A stretch of DNA of 64,000 nucleotides from Patescibacteria group bacterium (GTDB lineage: Bacteria > Patescibacteriota > Minisyncoccia > Phycocordibacterales > JAACPR01), in NCBI GenBank assembly GCA_022711495.1, contig JAKLEX010000001.1, positions 370,171 to 434,170 of the forward strand. The letters are read 5' to 3'. The notes under the pieces are model-generated. The model was not told the DNA's origin, ran no database searches, and saw nothing but the letters and a program-made list of their open reading frames with translations. Made by a program: the position numbers and the translations under genes. This document shows positions 10,027 to 47,430 of the stretch, piece by piece. The first letter of the stretch is position 1. Each line of letters begins with the position of its first letter.

Positions 10027-10029
10027 CTT

Positions 10030-11151: not shown

Positions 11152-11154
11152 AAT

Positions 11155-13816: not shown

Positions 13817-13835
13817 CGAAACAAATTAAATTTAA

Positions 13836-14912
13836 ATGGCCGAGCTATTAACTTTTTCCAGAGAAACTTATAACGAGGAGATAAAAAACTTCTTGGATAA
13901 AAATTACGCACCGCTAACGCAGTATGATTTTTACGGCAATTGGCAAAAGGCCGTCGGAAGAGATGTCTATGAATTTTCAATCAGAAATTCCGCTGGAGAA
14001 CTGGTGTTGTATTCCCAAGCCATCTCAATCCCCGCAGGACTTAAGAAAAAGTTTTTATACTGCCCATATGGACCAATCATCAGTAAAAAGATCTCCGAAA
14101 ATCCGGTTAAACTAACGGAGTTACTCAATTTTTTGAACGAGAAAATCTCGACGTTTTTGAGAGAAATCGACCATTCTTTCCTTAGACTTGACTTCACCCC
14201 CAATATTGATAATTTCGCGCAAAATAGCCCAAATTTGACCCTAAAAAGGGCCCCCAAATGGTCAGAGGGGGGATCTTTCTTCCAGCCGCGACTGGAAACC
14301 GCCCTCAACCTGTCAAAAGGCGTGGACGATCTATATTCGGAGATAGATTCAAAAAACCGCTATGCCATCAGGTTGGCCGAAAGAAAGGGGATCAAAATAG
14401 AGATTATTCTAGAAAATTTCTTAACCCATTTTGAAACTTTTTATCAGATGATTAAAGATACGGCTGACAGAAACTCTTTTAATTTGCACAGCAAAAAATA
14501 TTATCTGGAAATATTCAAAGATCTGGATAAAAGAAAAAATGGTCGATTGGTTTTGGCAAAAGTGGATGAAACAATCGCTACTTGTCTTGTTTTTGTGGAT
14601 TTTAACAAGACGACGATGTTTTTACTCGGGGCTTCTTTGACTGAATTAAATAAAAAAGTTCCAACATCTCACTTGGCTCATTGGAAAAATATAGAATTCG
14701 CCAAAAAATCCGGGTTAGAAATTTATAACTTTGGCGGAATATCTAAGGAAAAATCCCGCTCGGACAGTTTGAGCGGCGTAACTATGTTTAAACGAAGATT
14801 TGGCGGATATGAAATTAAACATTCTGATTATTACGACTTAGTTGTAGACAAAATCGGCTATAGAATATTCCTATTCAAGAAATGGCTTCGCTGGCTTAAA
14901 AATCTGATATAA
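13836..14912 (+). CDS. FemAB-family protein (probable peptidoglycan interpeptide-bridge aminoacyltransferase)
   Basis: Length and residue pattern resemble FemAB/MurM. Located right after the dcw genes and the M23 peptidase. Assigned by pattern recognition only. Confidence 0.5.
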   Translation: MAELLTFSRETYNEEIKNFLDKNYAPLTQYDFYGNWQKAVGRDVYEFSIRNSAGELVLYSQAISIPAGLKKKFLYCPYGPIISKKISENPVKLTELLNFLNEKISTFLREIDHSFLRLDFTPNIDNFAQNSPNLTLKRAPKWSEGGSFFQPRLETALNLSKGVDDLYSEIDSKNRYAIRLAERKGIKIEIILENFLTHFETFYQMIKDTADRNSFNLHSKKYYLEIFKDLDKRKNGRLVLAKVDETIATCLVFVDFNKTTMFLLGASLTELNKKVPTSHLAHWKNIEFAKKSGLEIYNFGGISKEKSRSDSLSGVTMFKRRFGGYEIKHSDYYDLVVDKIGYRIFLFKKWLRWLKNLI

Positions 14913-14923
14913 TAAGAGCATCT

Positions 14924-15166
14924 ATGAAATCATTATGTGTGGCAGGGAATTCTAGGGGTTTTATAAGGTTAATAATACTTTTAATCGTTATTTTGGTGAT
15001 AGCCAGTCTGCTTGGGTTTAGTCCACAGTATGTCTGGACTAATTATTTAGCACCAATATTTGGTTTTATTTGGCGTTTAATCGTCGCGTTTGCTGGCTTC
15101 TTGGTTAAGTTACTAAAAGCTGCGGGTGAGGCCTTTGACTATCTTCTTGATTTAATTAAAAACTAG
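14924..15166 (+). CDS. Small hypothetical membrane protein (80 aa, 2 hydrophobic helices)
   Basis: ORF with two hydrophobic segments. No recognisable family. Confidence 0.35.
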   Translation: MKSLCVAGNSRGFIRLIILLIVILVIASLLGFSPQYVWTNYLAPIFGFIWRLIVAFAGFLVKLLKAAGEAFDYLLDLIKN

Positions 15167-15223
15167 CGCCTTTCGGGCTTTCTCATATATAGTGTCGCAA
15201 AAGGTATATTGTGCGACGTTATA

Positions 15224-15736
15224 CTACCTTTTAGCTATCACCACCTCGCGGACATTATTCCAACAATTGGAAGAATGAACCCACGGATCTGTGCCATATT
15301 TATCGTACAAATATTTGGCGTAAGCCATATTACCTTCAAGAGAATAAATATCGTATCCGAGCATTACGGCTGTTCCTGCATGATATCGCTCGTTGATCTG
15401 CATCAAGCCAACATCGCTTGGATTAACCTTACCCCTTAAAACGCTGCCGTCAGCGTTGAATTGATAAAATTTTGATTCGCAATAAGCAATATCCACTAAC
15501 ACAGGAGTTTCGTTGAAATATTCTTCAGTCAATTGCTTTACTGTTTTAATAGCAGGATCAATCGTTTCGTCATAAAAATCCATATCAAAATCCGTTTGCC
15601 CAAGCCAATCGGACACTCCATTCGGCTCCGAAAGCAGGTTAATCCCCTGTCTCGTGTCTACGACAGGAGTAAGAATATTTTGGTTCAATATCAGGCTATC
15701 AGTCGTCTGACTGGTCGCGCTAGCAACTGAAGTCAT
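15224..15736 (-). CDS. Lytic transglycosylase-like (SLT domain) protein, probably secreted
   Basis: Catalytic E-S context (CESKF) plus the GLMQIN motif typical of the SLT lysozyme-like fold. The upstream in-frame sequence (KFIIQIALGLSL-) looks like a signal peptide but has no ATG, so the start is uncertain. Confidence 0.55.
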   Translation of the reverse strand: MTSVASATSQTTDSLILNQNILTPVVDTRQGINLLSEPNGVSDWLGQTDFDMDFYDETIDPAIKTVKQLTEEYFNETPVLVDIAYCESKFYQFNADGSVLRGKVNPSDVGLMQINERYHAGTAVMLGYDIYSLEGNMAYAKYLYDKYGTDPWVHSSNCWNNVREVVIAKR

Positions 15737-15966
15737 TAAAGATAACCCTAGAGCAATTTGTATAATAAATTTTTATTAATTTTAATCTGCGCGCAAGACA
15801 TCGTTACAGAAATCGCAGGTTCTGGGCAGAATCCGGTTTACTGGGCCTAGAACTAAAAAACTCAAGCATTCGCCTGAGTTACATCTCATATTCTAGCACG
15901 GGTTGCCCAAATTTGTCAAATGTTATAATCGCCTTATTTATAGCCCTATAATAGGCATATTTAAAC

Positions 15967-16332
15967 CTACTCGCAGTTTGCCGCCAGCGTATATCCGGCC
16001 CCTTCGGCGGCCTCAATCGTCGAAAAATATATCTTATTTTCATTTTTGATCCGATTGGCGCCTGAACAATGGACAAAATAGTATTTTTTACCATTCTTTG
16101 AGGCCACAATATTCCCTCCCCCTGTTGCAACTAACTCCTTCTCTGGATTTAAAATATTCGGATAAAAGTTCTTTATTATCTCAATTTCCGGCGGAGTTTT
16201 TATTCGAAGAAGGAGAAATACTCCTAAAACATCGACCATAATCAGGAATGAGGCAAAAAAGACGGTTATTTTAGCCAAAATCAAGCGGCCTGCCCGGCTC
16301 TTGATTTTTTCCTTGATTTGTTCTAAACTCAC
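15967..16332 (-). CDS. Membrane-anchored protein with C-terminal Ada-like metal-binding-type domain
   Basis: N-terminal TM helix. C-terminal YYFVHCSGANRIKNENKIYFSTIEAAEGAGYTLAANC resembles the Ada N-terminal Zn-binding domain pattern (FC..C...EN..FF....A...GFRPC..C) but with fewer Cys. Tentative. Confidence 0.45.
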   Translation of the reverse strand: MSLEQIKEKIKSRAGRLILAKITVFFASFLIMVDVLGVFLLLRIKTPPEIEIIKNFYPNILNPEKELVATGGGNIVASKNGKKYYFVHCSGANRIKNENKIYFSTIEAAEGAGYTLAANCE

Positions 16333-22834: not shown

Positions 22835-25800
22835 TCAATACCCCACATTAATCGTAGTTTTGAACGTCTGAACAACTGGACTGCCGACATAATTAGGCCC
22901 AGTGTGTTCCAGTCTAAGAATAATTTCAACTTGTCCCCTGTCGCTGCCAACCGGAGTTAGATTTCTAAAACTGGCGTATTGGACTTGAACATCTCTGGAG
23001 GTCAAACGTCTAGGTTCACCGTTCCCTTCCTGAATATACAAAACCCCACCTTCAACATAGAAAACGGTCTCAACGTCATCTTTAACAAAGGTAATCGTAG
23101 ATATACCCACCTGGGACAAAACGGTTGAGCCCCAGACAGACAAAGGATCTCTCAAAAAAGTAGTTTCGTGTTCATCTGCCAAAACAACGCTAGAAGTTCC
23201 GTCTAGTCCAAGTTTTATTGTCTTTCCGACAGAATCATATTCTCCCATTTCTTCCTGAAGAGAATATTCCGGATATACGCAAAGAACTTGGCCTTCTGGA
23301 ATCTCAACGGAATCTGAAAATTCAGCTGTACCACTAGCGTCATCAAGATCAACGGCCACGCCAAAAGGACTATCTTCGTCAAAACTTTCAACTTCAGCGG
23401 AGCTTTCTGGGCAAACAGACGAAGATGTTCCTGTCTCTAATACATAGTTCAGTTGAACATCATCAATATATTCTGGTTCTAGAGTTCCGAATTGTGTGAG
23501 AGTTATTTCTTCAATTGTGTCAGTTCCAGATTCTTTATAAAAGACAAAGGCACCATCAAGAGCAACATCAGCGTCCCCCGGATCAATTGCCGTCACGTGA
23601 CGACCGACGGTGGTGGCAATTAGGTTGCCTGTAGAAATTGAAGTTATGTCCCAGTTTATGTTATTGCCACTATCAAGACCGGTCGTCTCAATTACCAAGA
23701 CGTTAATGTTATTAGAATCCTGAACATCAACATAAGTTATGGCTCGAACACCTTGTGGGTCAATACTCCATTGTGTATCGGGAGTTGAAGATCTTAACAT
23801 CAGTAAATTAGATTCGTCAGAGCCAGACATGGTGGTGGTGCCAGCAACAGTGTATGTGCTTCCAGCGGTAAATGTCGCGGTCGTTGGTGTAGTTGTGGCT
23901 ATAATATTTAGATTTTGATAGGACCACGCCGGATTGATTGTCAGGGTATCCGAACCGCTGTATTCAACAGTAGAGCCGGTGTTCATGGTAACTGAACCAG
24001 TGACAGTTTCGGCACCGGTGAGACGTAGAGTGCCGCCGGATTGTGAAAAGCCACCATTGAACGTCGCGTTGACGCCGTTTAAGTCAACAACGCCAGTAGA
24101 AAGATTTAGGCCGTAACCGGCGAGGGCCTTTAGCCATGTGACCGTCCCGGAACCAGTCAGAGTTATGGTGGCCGATTCATTATTAAGGGTGGTCTTTGGC
24201 ATGTAGGCTCCAGCGGCAATATTTACACTTTGAGCTTCACCTCCATCAATGAGGAAACCAATTTTATAATAAGTGGTATTTACCCCATCAAATGTTGAGT
24301 TGACGACAACCGGACCTTCGGCGTTGAAAGTCGCGTCACCGGCACTAATTTTATAAAATCTCCCATTAGTTAGGGTCGTCGTGGCATTAACAATAAAGGG
24401 ATAGTTGTTCGCTAATGTTAATTGGACGTTGTTATCTTTATTAAACTCAAATTCATAAAACTCCACCGTGTCATCAGTGGTGAATGCCGCATTGGTGGCC
24501 CCGCTGATTATGACTTTCCCGTTGTTATGATCAAAAAAACCATCATCAGAAACAATGAGGCTGCCAGTGAGAGTCAGCAGATCTGATGGCGCTAAAAATG
24601 TCCCGCTTGAAATAGTGAGACTATTTAACGATTCATTGGGTGCGGTGGAATTTGTGAAAGAGCCGCCGGTAATTTCAAATGTTCCTCCGGCCCTGATCGT
24701 ACCGGAACCGCCAATAAAGGTCCCACCACTCTGCGAAAATCCGCCTGTAAAGACGGCATTTACACCATTTAGGTCAACCGTTCCATTTTGAATATATAGA
24801 CCGTAGCCTGTTGCTCCTGGCCATGTAGTAGTTCCGGAACCAGTTAGGGTTATGGTGGTTAACTCATTATTAAGCGTAGTTCTTGGCATATAGGCTCCAG
24901 CAGGCAAATTAAAACTCTGATCTACTTCCCCATCAATTAGAAAATTAACTCTATAATAAGATGTATTTACCCCATCAAATGTTGAGTTGACGACAACCGG
25001 ACCTTCGGCGTTGAAAGTCGCGTCACCGGCACTAATTTTATAAAATCTCCCATTAGTTAGGGTCGTCGTGGCATTAACAATAAAGGGATAGTTGTTCGCT
25101 AATGTTAATTGGACGTTGTTATCTTTATTAAACTCAAATTCATAAAACTCCACCGTGTCATCAGTGGTGAATGCCGCATTGGTGGCCCCGCTGATTATGA
25201 CTTTCCCGTTGTTATGATCAAAAAAACCATCATCAGAAACAATGAGGCTGCCAGTGAGAGTCAGCAGATCTGATGGCGCTAAAAATGTCCCGCTTGAAAT
25301 AGTGAGACTATTTAACGATTCATTGGGTGCGGTGGAATTTGTGAAAGAGCCGCCGGTAATTTCAAATGTTCCTCCGGCCCTGATCGTACCGGAACCGCCA
25401 ATAAAGGTCCCACCACTCTGCGAAAATCCGCCTGTAAAGACGGCATTTACACCATTTAGGTCAACCGTTCCATTTTGAATATATAGACCGTAGCCTGTTG
25501 CTCCTGGCCATGTAGTAGTTCCGGAACCAGTTAGGGTTATGGTGGTTAACTCATTATTAAGCGTAGTTCTTGGCATATAGGCTCCAGCAGGCAAATTAAA
25601 ACTCTGATCTACTTCCCCATCAATGAGGAAGTTAACGGCCGGAAAGTTTGATCTAACCCCATCAAATGTTGAGTTGACTACTATGGGACCCTCGGCCTTA
25701 ACAGTAGACATTGATCCGCTACTGTGAAATCGACCATCGGTTAATGTGGTTGTTGCTTTAACAGTGAAGAGATCTCCAGTGGCCAACACTAAATACGCCC

Positions 25801-26272
25801 CATTGGTCTTACTAAACTCAAACTCATAGAAATCTACACCGGCAGGTGGGGCATCAAAAGTCGCGCTACCACCGCTGGCGATAATTTTACCGCTATTATG
25901 GTCGAAAGCATCTTCTTCAACAATTGTAAAATTTCCGGAAATAGTCAGGGTATTCCCTGTCCCCGGAGCCGTGAACGTCCCTGTATATCCGGCCTGCATT
26001 GTCAGAGAGGCAATAGACCAGCTACCAGTAGAAGTGGCATCATTGGTACAAGACGAGGTGAAATAAACGGCATCGCTAGCACCCGGAACAGATGCGCCAC
26101 CGCTAACGCCGCAATCATTTGCCGCTGTTGACCAGTTAGCCGAATCCAAGACATCACCACCATCAGAGCCAACCCAGTAACGACTGGCCGCCTGACCAGT
26201 TTTGGCAAAAGCAAAAAGAAAAAGCGCGACCACTAGAAACTTAAATAGTTTTCTAAAGTTCATTATAAACAA
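22835..26272 (-). CDS. Large secreted repeat-containing surface protein (1145 aa; Thr/Gly/Asn-rich, likely beta-solenoid/adhesin-like)
   Basis: N-terminal signal peptide (MFIMNFRKLFKFLVVALFLFAFAKTGQAAS). About 3.5 copies of a ~229-aa repeat, two of them identical. Composition is typical of beta-helix adhesins. No LPXTG motif was seen. Confidence 0.7.
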   Translation of the reverse strand: MFIMNFRKLFKFLVVALFLFAFAKTGQAASRYWVGSDGGDVLDSANWSTAANDCGVSGGASVPGASDAVYFTSSCTNDATSTGSWSIASLTMQAGYTGTFTAPGTGNTLTISGNFTIVEEDAFDHNSGKIIASGGSATFDAPPAGVDFYEFEFSKTNGAYLVLATGDLFTVKATTTLTDGRFHSSGSMSTVKAEGPIVVNSTFDGVRSNFPAVNFLIDGEVDQSFNLPAGAYMPRTTLNNELTTITLTGSGTTTWPGATGYGLYIQNGTVDLNGVNAVFTGGFSQSGGTFIGGSGTIRAGGTFEITGGSFTNSTAPNESLNSLTISSGTFLAPSDLLTLTGSLIVSDDGFFDHNNGKVIISGATNAAFTTDDTVEFYEFEFNKDNNVQLTLANNYPFIVNATTTLTNGRFYKISAGDATFNAEGPVVVNSTFDGVNTSYYRVNFLIDGEVDQSFNLPAGAYMPRTTLNNELTTITLTGSGTTTWPGATGYGLYIQNGTVDLNGVNAVFTGGFSQSGGTFIGGSGTIRAGGTFEITGGSFTNSTAPNESLNSLTISSGTFLAPSDLLTLTGSLIVSDDGFFDHNNGKVIISGATNAAFTTDDTVEFYEFEFNKDNNVQLTLANNYPFIVNATTTLTNGRFYKISAGDATFNAEGPVVVNSTFDGVNTTYYKIGFLIDGGEAQSVNIAAGAYMPKTTLNNESATITLTGSGTVTWLKALAGYGLNLSTGVVDLNGVNATFNGGFSQSGGTLRLTGAETVTGSVTMNTGSTVEYSGSDTLTINPAWSYQNLNIIATTTPTTATFTAGSTYTVAGTTTMSGSDESNLLMLRSSTPDTQWSIDPQGVRAITYVDVQDSNNINVLVIETTGLDSGNNINWDITSISTGNLIATTVGRHVTAIDPGDADVALDGAFVFYKESGTDTIEEITLTQFGTLEPEYIDDVQLNYVLETGTSSSVCPESSAEVESFDEDSPFGVAVDLDDASGTAEFSDSVEIPEGQVLCVYPEYSLQEEMGEYDSVGKTIKLGLDGTSSVVLADEHETTFLRDPLSVWGSTVLSQVGISTITFVKDDVETVFYVEGGVLYIQEGNGEPRRLTSRDVQVQYASFRNLTPVGSDRGQVEIILRLEHTGPNYVGSPVVQTFKTTINVGY
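24278..25624. repeat. Perfect tandem duplication inside the surface-protein gene: two ~660 bp copies with 687 bp period (229 codons)
   Basis: Nucleotide stretches starting near 24283 and 24970 are identical for about 660 bp. The two identical antisense ORF-track entries 24555..24791 and 25242..25478 are offset by exactly 687 nt. Boundaries are approximate. Confidence 0.85.
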
Positions 26273-31477: not shown

Positions 31478-32104
31478 TTAATCCATTGCCTCCGCTTCAA
31501 CTATCCACCTCTCTTCCCTAGCACCAAAGGTATTACAAGTTGAAATGGTTAATTTTTTAATATCGCTGTTAAATTTGATCAGCGCTTCATTCTCGTCAAC
31601 TAGACTGACTTTCGTGACTTTATAAAAATAATTGCTGCCGTTGGCAATCAGTTGGATTACATCACCTTCATCTAATTTATATAAATTATTAAAAACTTTG
31701 AGAGCAGAGCCCTGCGCGTTTAGATACAAATCAGCACTATGGCCAAAAATAAAGATATTGCCGTTTTCCACCGAACCGGAGCCAGGATAATGCACCGGGC
31801 CTTGGCTTAAATGAACATCAAGCTCCGCGACATTAAAAGTATCCGGCTGCTGAATTTTAGCGCCAATCCCCAATTTGCTGATAATAATTTCATCCGGACG
31901 AGTGTAAGTTCCAGTAAACCCGCCTTGAGAATAGTCAAACGGCTGACCGATTATTCCCGGAGCTTTATGAAAAAAATAATCGTATAAGCTTAAGCTTTTG
32001 GGCGCCAAGCCGGAGAGAGAAAAAACAACAAGAGAGACAACAAAGACAACGAGAAATATTTTTAGAAAAACCAGCTGTTTGTGATGGTTTGTGTTTTCTA
32101 TCAT
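31478..32104 (-). CDS. Sortase family transpeptidase
   Basis: N-terminal TM anchor. Conserved His (IFGHS), the catalytic Cys motif LTISTC and a downstream Arg (EERW). Confidence 0.7.
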   Translation of the reverse strand: MIENTNHHKQLVFLKIFLVVFVVSLVVFSLSGLAPKSLSLYDYFFHKAPGIIGQPFDYSQGGFTGTYTRPDEIIISKLGIGAKIQQPDTFNVAELDVHLSQGPVHYPGSGSVENGNIFIFGHSADLYLNAQGSALKVFNNLYKLDEGDVIQLIANGSNYFYKVTKVSLVDENEALIKFNSDIKKLTISTCNTFGAREERWIVEAEAMD

Positions 32105-32193
32105 GTTATTGTCGTTTATTATACACGAAGGATAAACGGCGTAATAGATTTGAACTCGACAGATTAAATTTTAGACGTTATTATAAACCAACC

Positions 32194-39538: not shown

Positions 39539-39610
39539 GGCGTGGTGGCGAAGTGGAAACGCTGCGGTCTGCAAAACCGCCATGCGCGGGTTCGATTCCC
39601 GCCCACGCCT
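39539..39610 (+). tRNA. tRNA-Cys (anticodon GCA)
   Basis: Acceptor GGCGTGG/CCACGCC, anticodon loop CTGCAAA, T arm GCGGGTTCGATTCCCGC. Begins 3 nt after the rbfA stop. Confidence 0.8.
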
Positions 39611-39661
39611 CAATAATGTTTAAACTCCCGCGCGGGAGCCGGAACATTAGAAAAAAAATAA

Positions 39662-39743
39662 GCTCGGGTGGCGGAATTGGTATACGCGCACGACTTAAAA
39701 TCGTGTCTCGCAAGGGATGCGGGTTCGACCCCCGCCCCGAGCA
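39662..39743 (+). tRNA. tRNA-Leu (anticodon TAA), type II
   Basis: Acceptor GCTCGGG/CCCGAGC, anticodon stem CACGA/TCGTG with loop CTTAAAA, long variable arm, T arm GCGGGTTCGACCCCCGC. Confidence 0.8.
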
Positions 39744-39781
39744 CAATAAAGACGAAATTATTGAGCCGTTTTTATTGAAAC

Positions 39782-39854
39782 CCGCCCATAGCTCAGTTGG
39801 TAGAGCAGTCGCCTCTTAAGCGATTGGTCGTAGGTTCGAGTCCTACTGGGCGGA
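39782..39854 (+). tRNA. tRNA-Lys (anticodon CTT)
   Basis: D arm TAGCTCAGTTGGTAGAGC, anticodon loop CTCTTAA, T arm GTAGGTTCGAGTCCTAC. Acceptor CCGCCCA/TGGGCGG gives a C1-G72 pair, so the 5' end may be off by one. Confidence 0.7.
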
Positions 39855-39919
39855 CAAAGAAAATAATGATAGGTCAGATGCGTTAACACACGGCAAGTTT
39901 ATCTCCGTCGGTTAGCCAG

Positions 39920-41209
39920 TTAGATGGAATACCTAACAACTACAATACCCGAGCCACCATTTCCGCCATTTTGTGTATACCCACCTCCTCCTCCGCCACC
40001 GCCAGTATTTGACTCACCGTTTGAAACTTCGGCTCCATCATACTGGCCACCCTGGCCACCGCCGCCCAAACCGCCATCACCATATTCAACCGTATTTGAA
40101 TCTGTACCACCGCCTCCGCCACCGCCATAATAAGTGGCTACACCGGTAATGCTAGAGGAGATTCCATCTCCACCGTCTCCTCCACCGGCATCATATAGAG
40201 CAGAGTCGCCTATTTCTCCAGCGCCTCCTCCCCCTCCGCCAGAGCCTATGCCAGGGGCGGAGTTACCACTTCCGCCATCATTTCCTTGCGCCGGAGCAAC
40301 TTCTGGAGTATTACCCAACCCACCACTGCCGCTTGAATGAGCGCCCCCGCCACCAGAACCGCCATTGCCACCATCACTATCGCCATAGCCACCACCATAC
40401 CCTCCACCCGCGGCACTGGTTGTGTCAAAAAGACTTGCACTACCGGCATTTCCTCTGGCATCTTCAACTATCGCGCCAGCTCCTCCATCACCAATTGTTA
40501 CGGAATAGTCACCGGCATCTAGAGATTCACCATCTAATTCTATGACGCCGCCACCGCCGCCACCGCCAGCAGCATGTCTTCCTCCCCCGCCACCGCCACC
40601 AACAACCAAGATATCAGCAGTTAGAGTGGTAAGAGCGGTAAATGTATCATCGGAAGTAAATGTGTGGACACAGTACGAGCCGTCTTCGGTAACAGTTCCG
40701 CCAGTAGCATAATCGGCACAGGCATCCTCCCCTCCACCCTCTTCTTCAACCAATGAAGTTGAAGTTCCAATGACAACGCCGCCTAATCCTTGTTCTTTTG
40801 AACCTGGAGCAATCAGAGCCAGCTTATTGCCAGTCTGAAGAGCTATTTCGTAATTACCACCATTTGGATTTTCTGGTAGAGCTGAAAGATAAGTTGGAAC
40901 TAGCTCAGCTGAAAGATCAACGCAATCTGGTTCTACTGTATCACCACCGGTATCGCAGATTTCTTGGAGACTGCCATCTAATCCATCCGGCCAGTCTAGT
41001 TCGTCTATATAGTATTGTTGGACAGCTTTATGAATAGCATTTAAATCACTGGCTCTTTGAGCGTTTCTGGCTTGAGCTAGTTGTCTAGAAGGATTGATGG
41101 CCACGATAACGATCGCTGCCAAAATGGCGATAATGGCGATGACCAGAAGCATTTCCAGGAGAGTGAAACCTTTTTGAGTATTTCGTTTCGATAATTGAAA
41201 GAAAGACAT
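39920..41209 (-). CDS. Type IV pilin-like protein (class III signal/N-methylation motif) with very long glycine-rich C-terminal domain
   Basis: N-terminus MSFFQLSKRNTQKGFTLLEMLLVIAIIAILAAIVIVAI is the prepilin cleavage/methylation motif plus hydrophobic alpha1 helix. A ~120-aa pilin-like head is followed by ~270 aa dominated by poly-Gly tracts (GGGGGGG…), ending …GGSGIVVVRYSI. Confidence 0.7.
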   Translation of the reverse strand: MSFFQLSKRNTQKGFTLLEMLLVIAIIAILAAIVIVAINPSRQLAQARNAQRASDLNAIHKAVQQYYIDELDWPDGLDGSLQEICDTGGDTVEPDCVDLSAELVPTYLSALPENPNGGNYEIALQTGNKLALIAPGSKEQGLGGVVIGTSTSLVEEEGGGEDACADYATGGTVTEDGSYCVHTFTSDDTFTALTTLTADILVVGGGGGGGRHAAGGGGGGGVIELDGESLDAGDYSVTIGDGGAGAIVEDARGNAGSASLFDTTSAAGGGYGGGYGDSDGGNGGSGGGGAHSSGSGGLGNTPEVAPAQGNDGGSGNSAPGIGSGGGGGGAGEIGDSALYDAGGGDGGDGISSSITGVATYYGGGGGGGTDSNTVEYGDGGLGGGGQGGQYDGAEVSNGESNTGGGGGGGGYTQNGGNGGSGIVVVRYSI

Positions 41210-41361: not shown

Positions 41362-41444
41362 GCGCGGGTGGCGGAATTGGCAGACGCACTTGCCTTAGGA
41401 GCAAGCGAGGTTCCCTCGTGGAGGTTCAAGTCCTCTCCCGCGCA
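41362..41444 (+). tRNA. tRNA-Leu (anticodon TAG), type II
   Basis: Acceptor GCGCGGG/CCCGCGC, anticodon stem CTTGC/GCAAG with loop CTTAGGA, variable arm CGAGGTTCCCTCGTG, T arm GGAGGTTCAAGTCCTCT. Confidence 0.8.
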
Positions 41445-41520
41445 CAAATAAACAAAGAACGTCAGCTCAAGGGCGAGCCGGCGTTTTTTGTTTTTGTGGT
41501 ATTTCTATCTGGTGCCGTAG

Positions 41521-41615: not shown

Positions 41616-42707
41616 ATGAACGTCATTGGAGCTTGGATGATTGCGGGATGCATTGGAATTCTGGCGATTTTTTCGGCCCTCGTGGGCGTCGTCAAGGTTA
41701 AGGAAAATAAGCCAGTGGAACAACTGTCGCGCTGGACCTGGTTTGTCCTGTCGCGGTTGTTTGTTGGTGCCCTCGCCTATGCGGCGACCATCAATATTCT
41801 GGCAACTTTTTCCGATTCAGATCCAAACTGGGCTTGGTATTTCGGTGGGATCTTGGTCGGCCTAAGCGTTTTCGCCCTGATGATCGAATTGACGCACAAG
41901 TCTGCGCTCTTTCGATTGGCAGGTAATAAATTCGCGCTGGCCACCGATATCTTCTTTGGACGAAGGGCAACTTTCATCCGTGAAGATATGGATTGTGCCA
42001 TTCGGACTTACCGGATCTATCTCGGTGGTCTGAATGCCAAGTTCGACTGGGAGATCGTTGAAATCGTCGACGAATTCAATCGTGATGTGATCGACACGAT
42101 CTCCTCAACGGTAGAATTCGAAGACTCGCCGGGGCTACTCTCTGGTAAGTATACGCTAAGACCCGATCCGGAGAGATTGCAGTACTTCGCTGCGACGAAT
42201 GTCGATACCGCAAAAAGAGATGCTCTCCTAAAGGAGGCTTTTGGCGGCTACGTAAGAATGTACTTGAGTGATTTTCTCAAGACAAAAAAAATCGACGGGG
42301 CCATGGCCACTAAGGGCACCCTGTTCGACGAACTCCCTGAATCTGTCAAAACAGAGCTCCGACGCCAGGAAGAAAAGTACGGGGTCAAGTTAAACACCCG
42401 TATCATCGACAACATTGACTATCCGCCAGAACTGGCGAAGGTCAATGAGCAAATATCGGTGATGGCGCGGATACGAGAGATGGTTAACTTCCAGCTAGAG
42501 AGCTGGGGTAAGACCAAGGAGCAGATCGAGGGTAAGGCTGATCGGGGAAATGTCACGCCCGAAGAGCGGAAAGAAGCGGAAAGACTGGTGTTGGCGATTA
42601 CCGAACAGGTTCCGGAAAGGACACTTCGGCACATCATCGATGGGCGTCTCGACAGCAAAACGGCTGGCAAGATTATCCTGGGCATCAATAGCGGAAAGGA
42701 GGAATGA
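41616..42707 (+). CDS. Polytopic membrane protein with C-terminal SPFH/band-7-like region (tentative); GC-rich, probably horizontally acquired
   Basis: Three N-terminal hydrophobic helices. The C-terminal segment …GVKLNTRIIDNIDYPPELAKVNEQISVMARIREMV resembles the SPFH core (…GI.V..V.I.DI..P.EV..AM…). Codon composition is visibly GC-richer than the flanking genome. Confidence 0.45.
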   Translation: MNVIGAWMIAGCIGILAIFSALVGVVKVKENKPVEQLSRWTWFVLSRLFVGALAYAATINILATFSDSDPNWAWYFGGILVGLSVFALMIELTHKSALFRLAGNKFALATDIFFGRRATFIREDMDCAIRTYRIYLGGLNAKFDWEIVEIVDEFNRDVIDTISSTVEFEDSPGLLSGKYTLRPDPERLQYFAATNVDTAKRDALLKEAFGGYVRMYLSDFLKTKKIDGAMATKGTLFDELPESVKTELRRQEEKYGVKLNTRIIDNIDYPPELAKVNEQISVMARIREMVNFQLESWGKTKEQIEGKADRGNVTPEERKEAERLVLAITEQVPERTLRHIIDGRLDSKTAGKIILGINSGKEE

Positions 42708-43279
42708 TTATGGTCGAGCCTACCATTCGTAGCGTTGATAAGCGGACGATCCGTCTTTTCGTCTGGGCACCCCTCGGAGTGATCTTGGCGATAGTCGTCC
42801 TGATCACCGGCTATGTCCATCGGAGAGAAATCTCCGAGTGGATAACCGAGCTTGCTCGGGAAAAAACGGAGACGCGGCAACCTGTGGCAACACAGCCAGT
42901 CGCGCCTCAAAACCAGACGTCAGTCCCCCACCTGCGAGTCTACAACCTCGTACCGGGCGGAGACCACGTTTCGGTTCTATTCCGTGATTCCGAGAACGAT
43001 GCCCTCGCCTGGTACGGCGATGGCGGTTGTTACCAGGTTCGATACATTAAGCAAGACGGAATGACCTGGAACGCACCGGGCTGTATGCCGGGTGGTTGGA
43101 TCTGGGCAATCCCAGGAATCCATTGGCAAACGGTTTACCAATGGATTGGGGAACCGCTGGCCATACAGTTCAGGGTTCCGGCAACCAGGATAGAAAAGTC
43201 CTGGGGACGCAGGGTTGAGAAACCCTGCGCGCCAGTGACGCTTCACGTATCGCTGAAACCGATACGAGATCCGTCCTGA
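42704..43279 (+). CDS. Hypothetical membrane-anchored protein (1 TM plus Trp/Gly/Cys-rich ~140-aa domain), translationally coupled to the upstream gene
   Basis: ATGA overlap with the preceding ORF. TM helix FVWAPLGVILAIVVLITGYV. No recognisable family. GC-rich like its partner. Confidence 0.45.
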   Translation: MIMVEPTIRSVDKRTIRLFVWAPLGVILAIVVLITGYVHRREISEWITELAREKTETRQPVATQPVAPQNQTSVPHLRVYNLVPGGDHVSVLFRDSENDALAWYGDGGCYQVRYIKQDGMTWNAPGCMPGGWIWAIPGIHWQTVYQWIGEPLAIQFRVPATRIEKSWGRRVEKPCAPVTLHVSLKPIRDPS

Positions 43280-43302
43280 CAACAAAACGACAAGTAGTAA
43301 CC

Positions 43303-43338
43303 CAAAAGGCTCCGAGAGAGATTCCCGGAGCCTTTTTT
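43303..43338. terminator. Rho-independent terminator (bidirectional hairpin between the convergent cassette and pilin-array operons)
   Basis: aaaaGGCTCCGagagagattcCCGGAGCCtttttt: GC stem flanked by an A-tract and a T-tract. Confidence 0.7.
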
Positions 43339-43411
43339 ATTTTGACCCTACTTCAATCTGTGGAGAGTGAGTTATGAGACTATCAAATCTCCCGCCCTAA
43401 TTTTATCCGTC

Positions 43412-43657
43412 TTATCCGTAAATTGTATCCAGGGCCAATTTGATTATGCCGAAAACCGATACCATGATCAGCATTCCGATGAGCCCCCAGATTATGTGGC
43501 GGCGACCAGTTTCTCGAGCTTCTGGATTGCTAGCGCCCTTGATATAGTTGAAAATTCCCCACAAGAAAACAACCAGGGCTACGGCAAAAAGCAACCTTAT
43601 CAAGGGGTTAACAATAACAGAGGCGATCTTTGACAGAAAACTGTCTACTGACGACAT
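43412..43657 (-). CDS. VirB2/TrbC-like (T4SS-pilin-like) small two-helix membrane protein, paralog 1 of 6
   Basis: 81 aa. Hydrophobic helix, then …FLWGIFNYIKGASNPEARETGRRHIIWGLIGMLIMVSVFG…, the two-TM hairpin with charged loop shared by all six paralogs. Confidence 0.6.
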   Translation of the reverse strand: MSSVDSFLSKIASVIVNPLIRLLFAVALVVFLWGIFNYIKGASNPEARETGRRHIIWGLIGMLIMVSVFGIIKLALDTIYG

Positions 43658-43689
43658 AGAAGTATTTTAAGACTATTCCCAATTCTACT

Positions 43690-44028
43690 TTAGTTTGGAA
43701 TACCAGGAACATTAATTCCGCTTGTTCCGCCAGCATCAATATCCAAGGTGTCGCTTAGTAATTCAACCAATCCCCAGACAGAAACCATGACGAATAGAAC
43801 AATAATTCCGTAAATCATCACGTATCTGGCCTCCTTTCTCTTGTCATCATCCGTGGCAATAATGTATTGCAAAATTCCCCAGATGAAAACGATGACGGCG
43901 ATACCAATAACCAAAGGAATAAGAGCATCAATAATTGACTTGATCTTATCAATCACCCCTTCTATTCCGCTGGCCGCCAAAGCGACTACTGGAAACAAAG
44001 AAACCGCTAAACCTGAAATATATTTCAT
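43690..44028 (-). CDS. VirB2/TrbC-like (T4SS-pilin-like) small membrane protein, paralog 2 of 6 (with signal peptide)
   Basis: Signal peptide MKYISGLAVSLFPVVALAAS. Core …FIWGILQYIIATDDDKRKEARYVMIYGIIVLFVMVSVWGLVELL. Confidence 0.6.
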   Translation of the reverse strand: MKYISGLAVSLFPVVALAASGIEGVIDKIKSIIDALIPLVIGIAVIVFIWGILQYIIATDDDKRKEARYVMIYGIIVLFVMVSVWGLVELLSDTLDIDAGGTSGINVPGIPN

Positions 44029-44135
44029 AATTATAATCTTTAAATTTAAAAACTATTAATTAAACGATTAATAGCTATACGAGTATTATACATCAAAAGC
44101 CCAGTTAAAAACACAAGGTCCTGTGGATTTAAAAA

Positions 44136-44399
44136 CTAATAGGTAATCTGCGGAATACCGAAATTAAAGCCAAAACTATTGCTTAACATCTGGAGAATTC
44201 CCCAGACAGAAGTCATGACAAATAGCCCAATTATTCCGGCTATAATATAAGAAATGCTCTCTTTTCTCTTGTTTTCATCGTCAGAATTGAAGATATAAGC
44301 TATCAGGCCGTAAACAAAGACAAATAGAGATAGCGCGATAATGACCGTCACGATCTTGTTGCTGTAAGTTATAAGACGATTTATTAGTGTCGCGAACAT
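44136..44399 (-). CDS. VirB2/TrbC-like (T4SS-pilin-like) small membrane protein, paralog 3 of 6
   Basis: Core …FVYGLIAYIFNSDDENKRKESISYIIAGIIGLFVMTSVWGILQML. Confidence 0.6.
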   Translation of the reverse strand: MFATLINRLITYSNKIVTVIIALSLFVFVYGLIAYIFNSDDENKRKESISYIIAGIIGLFVMTSVWGILQMLSNSFGFNFGIPQITY

Positions 44400-44404
44400 G
44401 TTTA

Positions 44405-44710
44405 TTATTTTAATATTAAATTTTGTACTGATTGAGTTTGTGAGTTGGTAATATTGGCATCAGTAATACCCAGAGTTCCCTTCACCAGGGCGACCAAACC
44501 CCAAACAGAGACCATGACGAACAAAGTTATCAGCCCAAAGATTATGACCTTGGTTGAACTTTGTCGACTCTCCGCGTCTTTTGATACAACATATTTGAAA
44601 ATCCCATATATAAAAGCTAAAGTCGCAATGCTAATCAACAGACCCATCAAGCCAGATGAGCCGCCGCTACCGGAAAGAAAATTGATGATTTTACTTAATA
44701 GATTGTCCAT
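44405..44710 (-). CDS. VirB2/TrbC-like (T4SS-pilin-like) small membrane protein, paralog 4 of 6
   Basis: Core …FIYGIFKYVVSKDAESRQSSTKVIIFGLITLFVMVSVWGLVALV. Confidence 0.6.
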   Translation of the reverse strand: MDNLLSKIINFLSGSGGSSGLMGLLISIATLAFIYGIFKYVVSKDAESRQSSTKVIIFGLITLFVMVSVWGLVALVKGTLGITDANITNSQTQSVQNLILK

Positions 44711-44716
44711 GTGTTT

Positions 44717-45103
44717 TTAACTTTGGAGACCCTCAACTCCCAATTCCCCGGCGGTTTCTATGATGATATTGCTGATGGCCTGTGCGCCCAACAATACAAT
44801 CGCGCCAATAACCGTCCAGAAAAAGACGCTTTTGGCTTTTCTGATTGCCTCTTCGTTGCCCTGCGCGGTGACGAATAAGAATCCGGCGTAAATTATGGCC
44901 AAGACCACAAAGATGGCGCCAACTTTGGCGAAGACGCCTAGAATAACTCCCACTAGTTGTTGTAAGCTGCCAACTTTTGAGATCGGGTTTTGCAAACCGC
45001 TACTGCCGGCCGGGGTCTGAACACTACCATCTTGAGCGAGAACAATGCTCGGTAACAATCCCGAGACAAAAGTCGTAAGCGAATATTTTAAGTATCTGAA
45101 CAT
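44717..45103 (-). CDS. VirB2/TrbC-like (T4SS-pilin-like) membrane protein, paralog 5 of 6 (longer, with signal peptide)
   Basis: Signal peptide MFRYLKYSLTTFVSGLLPSIVLA. Core …LAIIYAGFLFVTAQGNEEAIRKAKSVFFWTVIGAIVLLGAQAISNIII matches the Gram-positive/CPR T4SS-pilin consensus as I recall it (…GGFQYITSAGD..K…A…IGLV…). The ORF track starts at 45154; I trimmed to the internal Met. Confidence 0.6.
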   Translation of the reverse strand: MFRYLKYSLTTFVSGLLPSIVLAQDGSVQTPAGSSGLQNPISKVGSLQQLVGVILGVFAKVGAIFVVLAIIYAGFLFVTAQGNEEAIRKAKSVFFWTVIGAIVLLGAQAISNIIIETAGELGVEGLQS

Positions 45104-45116
45104 GTTAATGGTTTTA

Positions 45117-45506
45117 TTATCTAATAAATTTGTTATACAGCGACACGATATCACCTTTCAAGCCAAACGCGGCGGCGATTAAATCAACAATCAAGAAACT
45201 GCCAACGGCTAGTAGAAAGCCTATTAGTATGTTTGAGAAAACCGAATGAGCCTTTGAGATTTTGCCCGAATCGCCGCCAGCCGACAGATATAAAAATCCA
45301 GCCCAAGCAAAGCCGATGGCCGATAGAACCATTCCTAATTTCAGGACATAGGCGATAACATCGCGGATCATCTGCCCTAGAGCGTAAAAGTTACATTTTT
45401 CTGGATCAGTACATGGAACAAGGCCGGCCGAGGCGATGTTCACCCAAAAAATAAACAACGCCAGGACAAATGTGGAGGCCAAAACTGTTTTTAAAAGCGA
45501 TTTCAT
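45117..45506 (-). CDS. VirB2/TrbC-like (T4SS-pilin-like) membrane protein, paralog 6 of 6 (with signal peptide and Cys pair)
   Basis: Signal peptide, then a CTDPEKC pair. Core …SAIGFAWAGFLYLSAGGDSGKISKAHSVFSNILIGFLLAVGSFLIV. Confidence 0.6.
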   Translation of the reverse strand: MKSLLKTVLASTFVLALFIFWVNIASAGLVPCTDPEKCNFYALGQMIRDVIAYVLKLGMVLSAIGFAWAGFLYLSAGGDSGKISKAHSVFSNILIGFLLAVGSFLIVDLIAAAFGLKGDIVSLYNKFIR

Positions 45507-46804
45507 TCAAATAAAGTTAATAGCTCGGCGCTGGCCCGGTCAACTGCGGCAGAAACATTCTGAAAACCAGACACCACTGATTCTATCATCTTTTTAAAGA
45601 TATTGTCAGTCTCTTCCCTATCTGGATCAAGAAAGATTTTTGATATTAGGGCCGAGCGGCGGAAAACATCCATATATGAAAGTGACGAGAAATTTTCATC
45701 AATATCTCGGCGAACCGGCGCGATTTGTAGAACGTTTGAAAGTATCTTAATGGCTTCCGGACTAGTTATCTTGACTAGGGTTGTGAAGGCATTAGAGATG
45801 TTCTGTGACCGACTTAAAATGGCGGCAAATTGCATCTTGCCGATCGTTGAATTGGCTATGCTTGACCTTGATTGAGGCAAGACGGAAACATCAAAATTTA
45901 GATTCGGATTTTTTTGTAATAATTGTCTCCTTTCATCGGCAAAACCGAAGTAAAAAGCTAAATCGCCAGCAATGAAAGCTTCCTCTGAATTTGGCATGGC
46001 CTTATTCCAAGAATAGACATCTTTTGTCGGATTGGAGAATTGGGCATAGAAATTAAGCGCCGTGTCGGCTGGCCGCAAGGTAAAACCAAACTGATCAGAA
46101 AGGGCCGAATAATATTTCTTCTTAACCGGATCGCGGAAAATCACATTATTGCCGGCCTGTTGAATCAAAGAGAGCAAAATGTCTTTGGCGGATTTGATGT
46201 TATCGTACTCGCCGAAAGCGACGGCCGAGCGGCTAATGTTACCTTTTGAATCTTTCTTGACGATCCTCGGAACCAAAGAAAGAAAATCATCCCAATATTT
46301 TGGAGAAGCGGTAATGCCTTCGTTGTTTAAAATTGTTCGATTCCAATACAAAACAAGCGGATTTATGGCAATCGGGAATCCTAAAAGTCCATCTTCGCGC
46401 AACAAGACCTCAGACGCCTCTATAAAATTATCTTTGAATTGCTTTTGGGTGTAATAGTCATAGCCGATCAAAAATAGTTTATTTTCGTGCTTCAAGAGCG
46501 TGTCATCGGTCAAAAAGACCGCGTCCGGCGCCGTATCCGACGCCAGGGCCTCTATCAATTCCTGTTCAAAAACACCCTCGTCAAATTCCTGATAGATGAT
46601 ATTGACTGAATTTTTCTCCAGAGAATTCATCTCTTCTTGAAATTGGGCGATGGCTTCCGCCGGTAAAGTTCCCCAGATTTTCACCGGCGCCGACACTTGC
46701 TGATTTTTACTTTTTTGGGCAGCAAAGACAATTACGCCGGCGACAATTATCACGACCATGACTCCCAACAAAATTATTTGAAACAAAGAAAGTTTTTTAT
46801 TCAT
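45503..46804 (-). CDS. Membrane-anchored extracellular solute-binding-fold protein (ABC-type SBP family 1-like), no cognate permease or ATPase nearby
   Basis: N-terminal TM anchor, then …VKIWGTLPAE…NSVNIIYQEF…LASDTAPDAVFLTDD… resembling sugar-type SBPs. ATGA-type overlaps with both the upstream methyltransferase and the downstream pilin paralog 6. Confidence 0.55.
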   Translation of the reverse strand: MNKKLSLFQIILLGVMVVIIVAGVIVFAAQKSKNQQVSAPVKIWGTLPAEAIAQFQEEMNSLEKNSVNIIYQEFDEGVFEQELIEALASDTAPDAVFLTDDTLLKHENKLFLIGYDYYTQKQFKDNFIEASEVLLREDGLLGFPIAINPLVLYWNRTILNNEGITASPKYWDDFLSLVPRIVKKDSKGNISRSAVAFGEYDNIKSAKDILLSLIQQAGNNVIFRDPVKKKYYSALSDQFGFTLRPADTALNFYAQFSNPTKDVYSWNKAMPNSEEAFIAGDLAFYFGFADERRQLLQKNPNLNFDVSVLPQSRSSIANSTIGKMQFAAILSRSQNISNAFTTLVKITSPEAIKILSNVLQIAPVRRDIDENFSSLSYMDVFRRSALISKIFLDPDREETDNIFKKMIESVVSGFQNVSAAVDRASAELLTLFE

Positions 46805-47331
46805 GAGGTTCTAAATATCATTCCATAATGGTGATCGCCAACTTTAATATCTCTGTCAAATTTGAATCCGGCGTTTTCAAACATCGTTCTGGCCACGTCG
46901 GGTCTTATAACCACATCGGGGCTGGGGCCGATTCCGCCGAATGAGTCCGTCCAATCTATAACCAAAATTTTTCCGCTTTTTGGATTAAGAATTCTTTTGG
47001 CTTCGGCCACGAAGGATTCTGGCTTTTCCAATTGAAACAAAGTATTGACGACAACCGCCCGATCAACGGAGAAATCTCGCAAAGTTGTTCCTTTCAATTC
47101 GTCTAAATCGCCCCAAATTATTTCAACGTTGTGTAGACCGCGGTTTTCAGCTTCGGTTTTAAGCTTATTTAACAAGTCTTTCTGGACATCAACGGAATAG
47201 ACTTTCCCACCCGGGCCAACTTTTTCCGATAATATAAAAGTATAAAAACCCGTGCCTGATCCAAGGTCGGCCACGGTCATTCCAGGATCAATATGAAATT
47301 GTTCTAGATTTGTTGCCGGATCTGAAAACAT
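46801..47331 (-). CDS. Small class I SAM-dependent methyltransferase (176 aa)
   Basis: Motif I VADLGSGTGFYT with an acidic residue after beta2 (VYSVDVQ). First gene of the pilin-array operon. Confidence 0.7.
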   Translation of the reverse strand: MFSDPATNLEQFHIDPGMTVADLGSGTGFYTFILSEKVGPGGKVYSVDVQKDLLNKLKTEAENRGLHNVEIIWGDLDELKGTTLRDFSVDRAVVVNTLFQLEKPESFVAEAKRILNPKSGKILVIDWTDSFGGIGPSPDVVIRPDVARTMFENAGFKFDRDIKVGDHHYGMIFRTS

Positions 47332-47430
47332 TGGTTCAATTATACATCAAATCCTTTCAGGCAAGTAGGGCAATTACTCACAGCGCTTATAAGTTGACGC
47401 CGATGAAACATTTGCAAGATTTAGGAACGT

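Follow-up and report, generated by a model that had tools for sequence, protein, structure and literature searches.

An ordered array of VirB2-like pilin paralogs headed by a solute-binding-fold protein in a Paceibacteria operon

Results

We analyzed a 64-kb stretch of contig JAKLEX010000001.1 from a Patescibacteria group bacterium (the window, meaning this whole stretch) and focused on an operon that combines a methyltransferase gene, a gene for a membrane-anchored solute-binding-fold protein, and six tandem genes for small pilin-like proteins. All coordinates are window positions, and the small proteins are labeled A to F in transcription order. The window is ordinary Patescibacteria chromosomal DNA, with dnaK/dnaJ, many aminoacyl-tRNA synthetases, ftsW, murG, dnaB, clpB, gyrA, ftsA/ftsZ, infB, and parB. 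Contigs identical to it are present in public metagenomes, and NCBI assigns a protein identical to E to a Candidatus Paceibacterota metagenome-assembled genome.

Direct reading of the open reading frames (ORFs) showed that the minus strand carries eight co-directional, closely spaced ORFs between positions 43412 and 47331. The first encodes a small class I S-adenosylmethionine (SAM)-dependent methyltransferase (MT; 46801-47331, 176 amino acids, aa), and the second encodes the membrane-anchored solute-binding-fold protein (SBP; 45503-46804, 433 aa). The MT and SBP genes overlap by 4 nucleotides (nt; “cctcATGAat” at 46804-46801), and a second ATGA overlap joins the SBP gene to that of A (“tgaATGAaa” at 45506-45503). 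An earlier description of this DNA, made from its letters only (the sequence-only reading), had claimed eight packed co-directional ORFs with ATGA overlaps at the first two junctions, and both overlaps can be read in the sequence.

The six pilin genes follow on the same strand. Paralog A (45117-45506, 129 aa) has a signal peptide, an exposed loop with two invariant Cys residues, and a two-helix hairpin. Paralog B (44717-45103, 128 aa) has a signal peptide and a two-helix hairpin when read from the ATG that other gene callers chose, which gives a normal signal peptide; the longest ORF for B opens at a GTG at position 45154. Paralogs C (44405-44710, 101 aa) and D (44136-44399, 87 aa), the latter with two transmembrane (TM) helices, occupy variable middle positions and have no signal peptide. 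Paralog E (43690-44028, 112 aa), with a signal peptide and a helical hairpin, holds the conserved penultimate position, and F (43412-43657, 81 aa) holds the conserved last position.

Hydropathy and the alignment of the six small proteins showed that each consists of two strongly hydrophobic helices joined by a short charged loop, which is the architecture of the PF18895 family. The loop reads GGDSGKISKAH in A, GNEEAIRKAK in B, DDENKRKES in D, and DDDKRKEAR in E; a signal-peptide-like segment stands at the N terminus of A, B, and E and is absent from C, D, and F. The AlphaFold2 model of E (predicted local distance difference test, pLDDT, 77) has a signal helix followed by helices at residues 22-57 and 61-94, with a 3-residue loop between them. 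The single layout that had been read from the sequence, with an optional signal peptide, a helix, a charged loop, and a second helix, is present in full, as are the four loops quoted for it.

We searched the six proteins against profile hidden Markov models (HMMs). For PF18895 (T4SS_pilin, gathering score 26.6 bits), E (36.1 bits), F (33.1 bits), D (28.8 bits), and B (27.8 bits) scored above the gathering score, and C (21.4 bits) and A (16.0 bits) scored below it. For PF04956 (TrbC/VirB2, gathering score 27.9 bits), B (17.1 bits) and E (15.3 bits) stayed below the gathering score, so that no window protein was assigned to this family. Among NCBIfam models, the best match for five of the six proteins was NF045849, “Mbov_0395 family pilin-like conjugal transfer protein” (27 to 38 bits, all below the cutoff of 40; E values 1e-6 to 1e-10, with 4e-7 for C and 7.5e-10 for F). 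Furthermore, in a search with an alignment of A-type orthologs, all 120 listed A orthologs carried PF18895 and about 20% also carried PF04956 TrbC. Of the 57 listed E homologs, 55 carried PF18895, the named ones being of the Paceibacteria type. By these matches, the six small proteins belong to the PF18895 T4SS_pilin/VirB2-like family. The VirB2/TrbC-like, type IV secretion system (T4SS) pilin identity proposed for them was therefore borne out through PF18895, with every TrbC match of the window proteins remaining below threshold.

Small hydrophobic secreted proteins encoded in tandem would also fit Flp/Tad or type IV (PilA-like) pilins or a competence pseudopilus, and a type IV pilin-like gene with an N_methyl motif lies 2 kb downstream of the array. 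However, none of the six proteins matched a Flp, N_methyl, or ComGC-type model at an E value of ≤1, none has a G/FxxxE prepilin motif, and each has two TM helices instead of one; the adjoining N_methyl gene is unique to the window genome and lies outside the conserved block. We regard this explanation as scarcely credible, and the DNA-uptake apparatus that the sequence-only reading had entertained is not supported either.

We then compared the locus with 80 fetched related loci and 3 from metagenomes, in which ORFs were called and searched with an HMM of the six window pilins. The SBP family is present in at least 587 species-level genomes, and its profile matched 1,785 clusters (50% identity) at an E value of ≤1e-30. 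The pilin HMM gave 428 matches over the related loci, of which 426 were on the strand of the SBP gene. Wherever at least 3 kb of downstream sequence was available (62 loci), the SBP gene was without exception directly followed by 4 to 8 pilin genes (4 in 5 loci, 5 in 15, 6 in 25, 7 in 16, and 8 in 1), at a spacing to the first pilin gene that was typically very short (median 2.5 nt; ≤25 nt in 69 of 78 loci). The gyrA...infB neighborhood as a whole is syntenic in relatives. These results indicate that the array is kept and not lost, with its gene order conserved in dozens of distant genomes, and the copy-number comparison at syntenic loci that had been suggested for the paralogs gave 4 to 8 pilins per locus. 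Because the six proteins match PF18895 and the gene order is kept in dozens of distant genomes, the eight-gene arrangement is not a product of chance.

The two genes that head the operon differ in their constancy. The MT gene lay directly upstream of the SBP gene in 69 related loci (median spacing 3 nt) and was missing from about ten loci that keep the SBP gene and the array, mostly in a group with 7 or 8 pilins. Insertions occur between gyrA and the MT gene and never between the MT and SBP genes, and the junction between SBP and pilin genes was never broken among the related loci. Because about ten loci lack the MT gene yet keep the SBP gene and the pilins, MT is an accessory first gene; its loss, together with the constant adjacency of the SBP gene and the array, leaves these two as the core module. 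The same losses speak against the part of modifier that had been assigned to the methyltransferase. The MT-less loci with mostly 7 or 8 pilins (L037, L045, L046, L060, L067, L069, and L078) may represent a distinct operon subclade.

Next, we looked into how the positions within the array correspond across genomes. In best-hit comparisons over 53 other arrays, A matched the first pilin gene in 45 and B the second in 52; E had its counterpart in the next-to-last gene of 42 arrays and F in the final gene of 50, while the best hits of C and D scattered over the middle. With each pilin typed against the window set, the dominant order was A-B-(E-like)n-E-F. Pairwise local identity among the six paralogs was 23 to 44%. 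A and B group together (31% identity between them, 23 to 27% to the rest), and C to F make up a second subfamily (33 to 44% identical; C shares 35 to 44% with D and E). Conservation is greatest for F, which has the highest score per residue to its orthologs (0.99 bit/residue). In A-type proteins, a Cys pair just past the signal-peptide cleavage site (C32 and C38) is invariant in 33 orthologs. By their sequences, the paralogs are ancient positional orthologs.

This order bears on whether the paralogs are an antigenic or phase-variable repertoire, that is, interchangeable proteins expressed alternately to evade host or phage, as proposed for the VirB2 proteins of Bartonella and Anaplasma. The within-array divergence and the copy number of 4 to 8 between genomes would suit such a repertoire, and the literature suggests host-range versatility (PMC12102498). 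Against it, positional orthology is strong even though the SBPs of the genomes concerned are only about 40% identical, the two subfamilies are distinct, with traits peculiar to a type (for example, the invariant Cys pair of A), and variation is confined to the middle copies. Moreover, we searched the DNA for elements that could drive phase variation, tandem repeats included, and found neither simple-sequence repeats nor invertible segments nor long repeats that could recombine; the sole DNA similarity between paralogs longer than about 30 nt covered 81 nt of D and E at 73% identity. We consider a variable repertoire very improbable, and the phase-variable filament suggested by the sequence-only reading is not upheld.

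The protein that heads the core module matched SBP_bac_1 (PF01547; 43.6 bits against a cutoff of 26, E value = 4.9e-11). Its AlphaFold2 model (pLDDT 90.5) has an N-terminal TM helix (approximately residues 7-32) and a complete two-lobe MalE-like fold, for which the best Foldseek matches were the sugar SBPs 4rjz, 4qsd, 4r9g, and MalE (E value about 1e-23, TM score 0.6-0.76, about 16% identity). The named structural relatives are Atu4361, CpMnBP1, Lmo0181, and MalE, and a profile search of the PDB gave 4r9f (5e-17). By its predicted structure, the protein has the sugar-SBP fold. Its invariant residues include W44, Y71, W171, Y264, W266, N155, Q216, and E291, and also D94, N202, N267, and N299-N303. 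Within the TM helix, F27 never varies, and conservation reaches ≥90% at F8, Q9, and V24, a pattern that one would not expect of a passive anchor. We also weighed whether the SBP N terminus is a type IV prepilin signal and rejected this, there being no Gly at position -1 and no Glu at position +5.

For MT, the matches were to Methyltransf_31 (64 bits, 1.4e-17) and Methyltransf_11/25 (49 bits), and the closest solved structure was 3dh0 (6e-25), an uncharacterized SAM methyltransferase from structural genomics. Judged by these matches, MT is a minimal class I SAM-dependent methyltransferase.

We also evaluated whether the SBP and MT genes are merely neighbors of the array, perhaps on one transcript with it, with SBP being the receptor of an ABC (ATP-binding cassette) sugar importer encoded elsewhere and MT a housekeeping enzyme. 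The SBP is a complete two-lobe MalE-like protein that sources annotate as an ABC substrate-binding protein, and the methyltransferase is dispensable. In addition, linkage by itself is weak evidence because the gyrA...infB neighborhood is wholly syntenic in relatives. However, no importer genes (BPD_transp or ABC_tran) were found in the window or within 8 to 10 kb in four Pfam-annotated related contexts, the SBP-pilin junction stays unbroken despite the insertions between gyrA and MT, and the SBP TM helix has conserved residues. Moreover, the SBP is in some genomes fused to a pilin. We judge this explanation unlikely.

The SBP and an A-type pilin domain form a single in-frame protein in three separate lineages; the linker between the two is hydrophilic and has no signal peptide. 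These independent fusions are encoded in L070 (9992-11674, 560 aa), in L087 (P0323; 5931-7691, 586 aa), and in L088 (P0291; 155-1894, 579 aa). The L087 locus runs gyrA, MT, SBP::A, and four pilins and thus no longer has an A gene of its own; by gene count, the same holds for L070. The topology of the fusion is consistent, with the C terminus of the SBP and the N terminus of the mature pilin both outside the membrane. The fusions, together with the conserved residues of the SBP TM helix, are the best evidence available to us and suggest that the SBP works physically with pilin A. The sequence-only reading had proposed the SBP-fold protein as a tip or adaptor, a proposal that gains indirect support from the three fusions.

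Other pilin domains are also attached to large or repeated partners. In L055, a 2,170-aa adhesin-like protein with He_PIG, Big_9, cadherin, PKD, and fn3 domains (9747-16259) ends in a B-type pilin domain, and A-type pilins carry N-terminal extensions in proteins of 468 aa (L084, 11329-12735) and 284 aa (L055, 8105-8959). These sequences suggest that the N termini of A- and B-type pilins are surface-exposed carriers. In the variable middle of the array, tandem pilin domains occur in one ORF, three in L006 (10123-11178) and two in L077 (12562-13293).

The array is interrupted by one conserved gap. Of 54 related arrays, 50 have a gap of ≥60 nt 5' of the penultimate pilin gene. The median length there is 102 nt, compared with a median of 10 nt for other gaps within arrays, and this gap usually holds a TATAAT-like hexamer 30 to 65 nt 5' of the start codon. 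In the window, the corresponding D-E gap on the minus strand is 107 nt long (44029-44135). Only two exact copies of the 12-mer TTGATGTATAAT exist in the window, both on the minus strand, one in each of the operon's two main intergenic gaps: candidate promoter P1 at 47339-47350, ending 8 nt 5' of the MT ATG, and an identical candidate internal promoter P2 at 44085-44096 in the D-E gap, 56 nt 5' of the E ATG. The shorter TGTATAAT is also found at 32118-32125 (minus strand), 13 nt upstream of an ORF starting at 32104, and at 15759-15766 (plus strand). TTGATGTATAAT and TGTATAAT may be extended -10 promoters of this organism with very short leaders. Two promoters in the operon would make E and F a more strongly or separately expressed core pair. 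A riboswitch or attenuator in the D-E gap was considered and rejected because the RNA fold was not significant (z = -0.6); there was also no Rfam match in the gap.

The operon ends at a bidirectional intrinsic-terminator hairpin (43304-43336, both strands) that is shared with convergent plus-strand genes and lies between F and a plus-strand ORF ending at 43279. Its GC-rich arms (43304-43317 and 43323-43336) are 14 nt long and 93% complementary, with a 5-nt loop, and the 136 nt around it fold at -40 kcal/mol (z = -2.85). With an A-run to one side of it and a T-run to the other, the hairpin can terminate in both directions. We based this call on folding and direct reading and not on the consensus promoter and terminator scanner, which did not list the hairpin and whose counts were no higher than in shuffled sequence. 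The tight operon ending at a bidirectional terminator that had been described from the sequence is supported by the gene overlaps and by this GC-rich hairpin with its A-run and T-run. The Rfam scan returned only tRNAs, apart from a subthreshold match to a gammaproteobacterial rimP leader that overlaps the hairpin (43281-43367, minus strand; 27.9 bits against a gathering score of 47, E value = 0.31) and is almost certainly due to chance.

Beyond the terminator, the slot between the array and rbfA/infB is a variable hotspot because other genomes hold unrelated genes without Pfam families there; the tRNA/pilin hotspot of the sequence-only reading is to this extent recovered, the region being variable among the related loci. 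Two overlapping plus-strand ORFs of 363 and 191 aa (41616-43279), convergent on the pilin operon, match no Pfam family, and a PHROGs search of them gave nothing useful. Their GC content is 0.48 to 0.49, compared with about 0.41 elsewhere, and they are common only to the closest relative (L007), with one further weak match. The type IV pilin-like gene mentioned above (39920-41209, minus strand) encodes a 429-aa protein with an N_methyl motif and a Gly_rich_2 domain that strongly matched the phage family phrog_2295 (2.8e-58), and it is flanked by tRNA genes at 39539-39855 and 41362-41445. None of the 83 related loci carries this gene, which suggests that it was recently inserted at a tRNA cluster.

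Elsewhere in the window, a 1,145-aa minus-strand ORF (22835-26272) matched no Pfam or PHROG family and has only a subthreshold FliW stretch; it could encode a large lineage-specific surface protein.

Discussion

The tandem array of diverged pilins is itself a published feature of Patescibacteria. Quinonero-Coronel et al. (2025, PMC12102498) described 441 “VirB2 arrays” of 2 to 11 tandem pilin genes in 383 Patescibacteria assemblies, with a mean within-array identity of 25%, and defined such an array as 2 to 11 pilin genes, in tandem or with one non-pilin gene between them, whose paralogs are highly divergent. The six tandem genes studied here, at 23 to 44% identity, fall within this definition. 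“Ca. Southlakia epibionticum” likewise encodes six VirB2-like pilins of divergent sequence, within a T4SS cluster that is essential (Wang et al., 2023, PMC10633639; 2025 review, PMC12857230). In the supplementary table of that study, SEML1_0014-0019 are essential PF18895 genes that adjoin VirB6-like and PrgI-like genes, and no SBP is listed in the cluster (PMC10633639). Six pilin paralogs in a row are thus not the anomaly for which the sequence-only reading had taken them.

That reading had also called the combination undescribed. This no longer applies to the tandem array, and it may still apply to the combination with an SBP at its head, which we did not find in the searchable literature: an SBP partner of pilin arrays is not mentioned in PMC12102498, PMC10633639, or PMC12857230, and a full-text literature search found none. 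What seems new is the detached, ordered, SBP-headed Paceibacteria operon, with its positional orthology, its internal promoter gap, and its SBP::pilin and adhesin::pilin fusions.

We consider it somewhat probable, on balance, that this operon represents the patescibacterial VirB2-like pilin array as it exists in Paceibacteria, and that its pilins are differentiated subunits of a surface structure related to the T4SS, in which a carbohydrate-binding SBP is the partner of A. The assembly of a filament or stalk, its dependence on a T4SS, the major and minor roles, the ligand of the SBP, and the promoters are what we infer in the following model. The small proteins would insert in the cytoplasmic membrane as helical hairpins, their positive loop facing inward and both termini outward; A, B, and E would do so after signal-peptide cleavage. 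A VirB4/VirB6-type T4SS-like machine, encoded elsewhere in the genome, would build a heteromeric envelope-spanning or extracellular structure from these pilins. E and F would be the conserved core (major) subunits with their own promoter, and A and B would be specialized minor subunits whose exposed N termini carry or dock extracellular “heads.” The head here would be the co-translated, membrane-anchored MalE-like protein, acting together with pilin A and most likely binding carbohydrate on, or released from, a host cell. The methyltransferase would be an accessory passenger of the operon.

A number of observations weigh against this interpretation. The HMM scores are modest (16 to 36 bits) for short hydrophobic proteins, and in a search of PDB sequences with the E profile, the single match to a real pilin was pKM101 TraM (8cw4, E value = 0.046). 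A fold search of the PDB with the AlphaFold2 model of E gave no match below an E value of 1, and thus no specific similarity to solved pilins; such a search with a predicted bare helical hairpin is uninformative. The SBP retains its N-terminal TM anchor, and the SBP::A fusion would have three TM segments, which suits a membrane-embedded complex better than an extruded filament. The occurrence of TTGATGTATAAT is barely above chance, with 0.41 matches expected when one mismatch is allowed and at least 2 in 5 of 100 shuffles. The review literature speaks only of a “potential” (PMC12857230), and no PF18895 protein is known to make a pilus. Finally, no T4SS machinery was found in the window or within about 10 kb in relatives: Pfam scans that included the 30 other window ORFs returned housekeeping genes only, with no VirB4, VirB6, VirD4, or PrgI in the 64 kb. 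Without T4SS genes nearby, the link to T4SS therefore rests on homology and on another Patescibacteria class.

VirB4 has been found in 2,417 of 3,035 Patescibacteria assemblies, and Table S1 of PMC12102498 lists it for three of the four related genomes that we could match (Parcubacteria C7867-006, Taylorbacteria RIFCSPLOWO2_12_FULL_43_20, and Athens0714_16). The fourth, Greene1014_15, is listed without VirB4, a further point on the opposing side; its contig is 5.4 kb long and holds only the SBP gene and the array. In the three VirB4-listed genomes (flanks of about 10 kb), no VirB4-sized Walker-A ORF except IF-2 lay within 10 kb of the array, so the Paceibacteria array is detached from virB4, unlike that of Southlakia. 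The patescibacterial T4SS, essential in the one species tested, is without the coupling protein and the relaxase that conjugation requires (PMC10633639), and its role has been called “completely unknown” (PMC11665869). In two other related loci, large Walker-A ORFs lie less than 10 kb upstream of the array, in L022 (2-1888, plus strand, 628 aa) and L034 (1965-4337, plus strand, 790 aa); they could be helicases or T4SS-type ATPases.

Several of these points would also fit an explanation without a filament, in which PF18895 hairpins are membrane modules that anchor or organize extracellular domains, such as the SBP or Ig/cadherin adhesins, and no pilus is extruded; the membrane complex would then possibly be a new SBP-dependent uptake or sensing device. 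The C-terminal place of the pilin domain in large surface proteins and in TM-anchored SBP fusions speaks for it, as do the tandem pilin domains within one polypeptide in L006 and L077, the lack of T4SS genes nearby, and the lack of fold similarity to solved pilins. Set against these are the homology to T4SS pilin families, the presence of a homologous and essential array inside the T4SS cluster of Southlakia, and the 4 to 8 copies with a conserved E-F core pair, which resemble major and minor subunits. We regard the filament-free explanation as rather unlikely. A narrower proposal, in which six proteins with two TM helices each make up a 12-TM transporter, is weakened by the copy numbers of 4 to 8 and by the pilin homology, and we kept it only as part of this alternative.

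Within the T4SS-related reading, a more specific proposal is that the specialized subunit A carries the MalE-like head, non-covalently or fused, as a receptor-binding or cargo-capturing tip of a T4SS filament or stalk. We offer it tentatively and consider it doubtful at present. If true, the T4SS would have an adhesin, or a device for capturing nutrients, of a new kind, and this would be a first concrete clue to a host-surface role of the essential patescibacterial T4SS. If the link to the SBP is incidental instead, the locus is one more case of a published feature.

The locus overturns nothing; it gives a testable handle on the function of the essential patescibacterial T4SS. In Paceibacteria, the largest class, the pilin paralogs are a stable ordered set of two specialized members, a variable middle, and a core pair with a promoter-like element, and this set is genetically tied, and sometimes fused, to a protein with a sugar-binding fold. 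The testable ideas that arise are the recognition or capture of host glycans by a T4SS-related structure and the division of the pilins into major and minor subunits. Moreover, the SBP domain would be a soluble, expressible handle for ligand screening in organisms that cannot be cultured.

Among known systems, the closest is the SEML1_0014-0019 array of Southlakia, which likewise consists of six tandem divergent paralogs of about 80 to 140 aa that match PF18895 (some also PF04956), at about 25 to 40% identity, in a monoderm member of the Candidate Phyla Radiation. In Southlakia (Saccharimonadia), however, the array lies within a T4SS cluster beside VirB6-, PrgI-, and VirB4-like genes with no SBP listed, whereas the Paceibacteria array is detached from T4SS genes, always headed by an SBP that is sometimes fused to A, and fixed in the order A-B-(E-like)n-E-F. 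The VirB2/TrbC/TraA pilins of PF04956 (T-pilus, F-pilus, and pKM101 TraM) share the signal peptide, the two hydrophobic helices, and the short charged loop, but their HMM similarity to the window proteins is weak (15 to 17 bits for TrbC, and an E value of 0.046 for TraM, 8cw4). The classical VirB2 systems have one gene, inside a T4SS operon of a diderm bacterium with VirB5, VirB7, VirB9, and VirB10, and the pilus is proven there, whereas for the window proteins it is hypothetical. The Mbov_0395 protein of a Mycoplasma integrative and conjugative element (NF045849) is also a small two-TM protein of wall-less or monoderm bacteria linked to T4SS-type transfer; it is a single gene on a mobile element, in contrast to the chromosomal array of several paralogs described here. 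The VirB2 paralogs of Bartonella and Anaplasma phagocytophilum are similar in being several diverged tandem genes in a host-dependent bacterium, but they are read as antigenic variants, whereas the window paralogs are stable positional orthologs, pointing to distinct structural roles.

The SBP has partial counterparts as well. ChvE, which acts with VirA in Agrobacterium, and PrgZ of pCF10 are SBP-fold proteins that are functionally attached to type IV secretion or conjugation, so that the fold does not serve importers only. ChvE and PrgZ act in signaling or pheromone import and are not known to be co-transcribed with, or fused to, pilin subunits. The MalE-like ABC sugar SBPs (Atu4361, CpMnBP1, and MalE) share the fold and the SBP_bac_1 family with the window protein at about 16% identity; the window protein differs from them in having no adjacent permease or ATPase, an N-terminal TM anchor in which some residues are conserved, an invariant link to a pilin array, and, in some genomes, a pilin fused to its C terminus.

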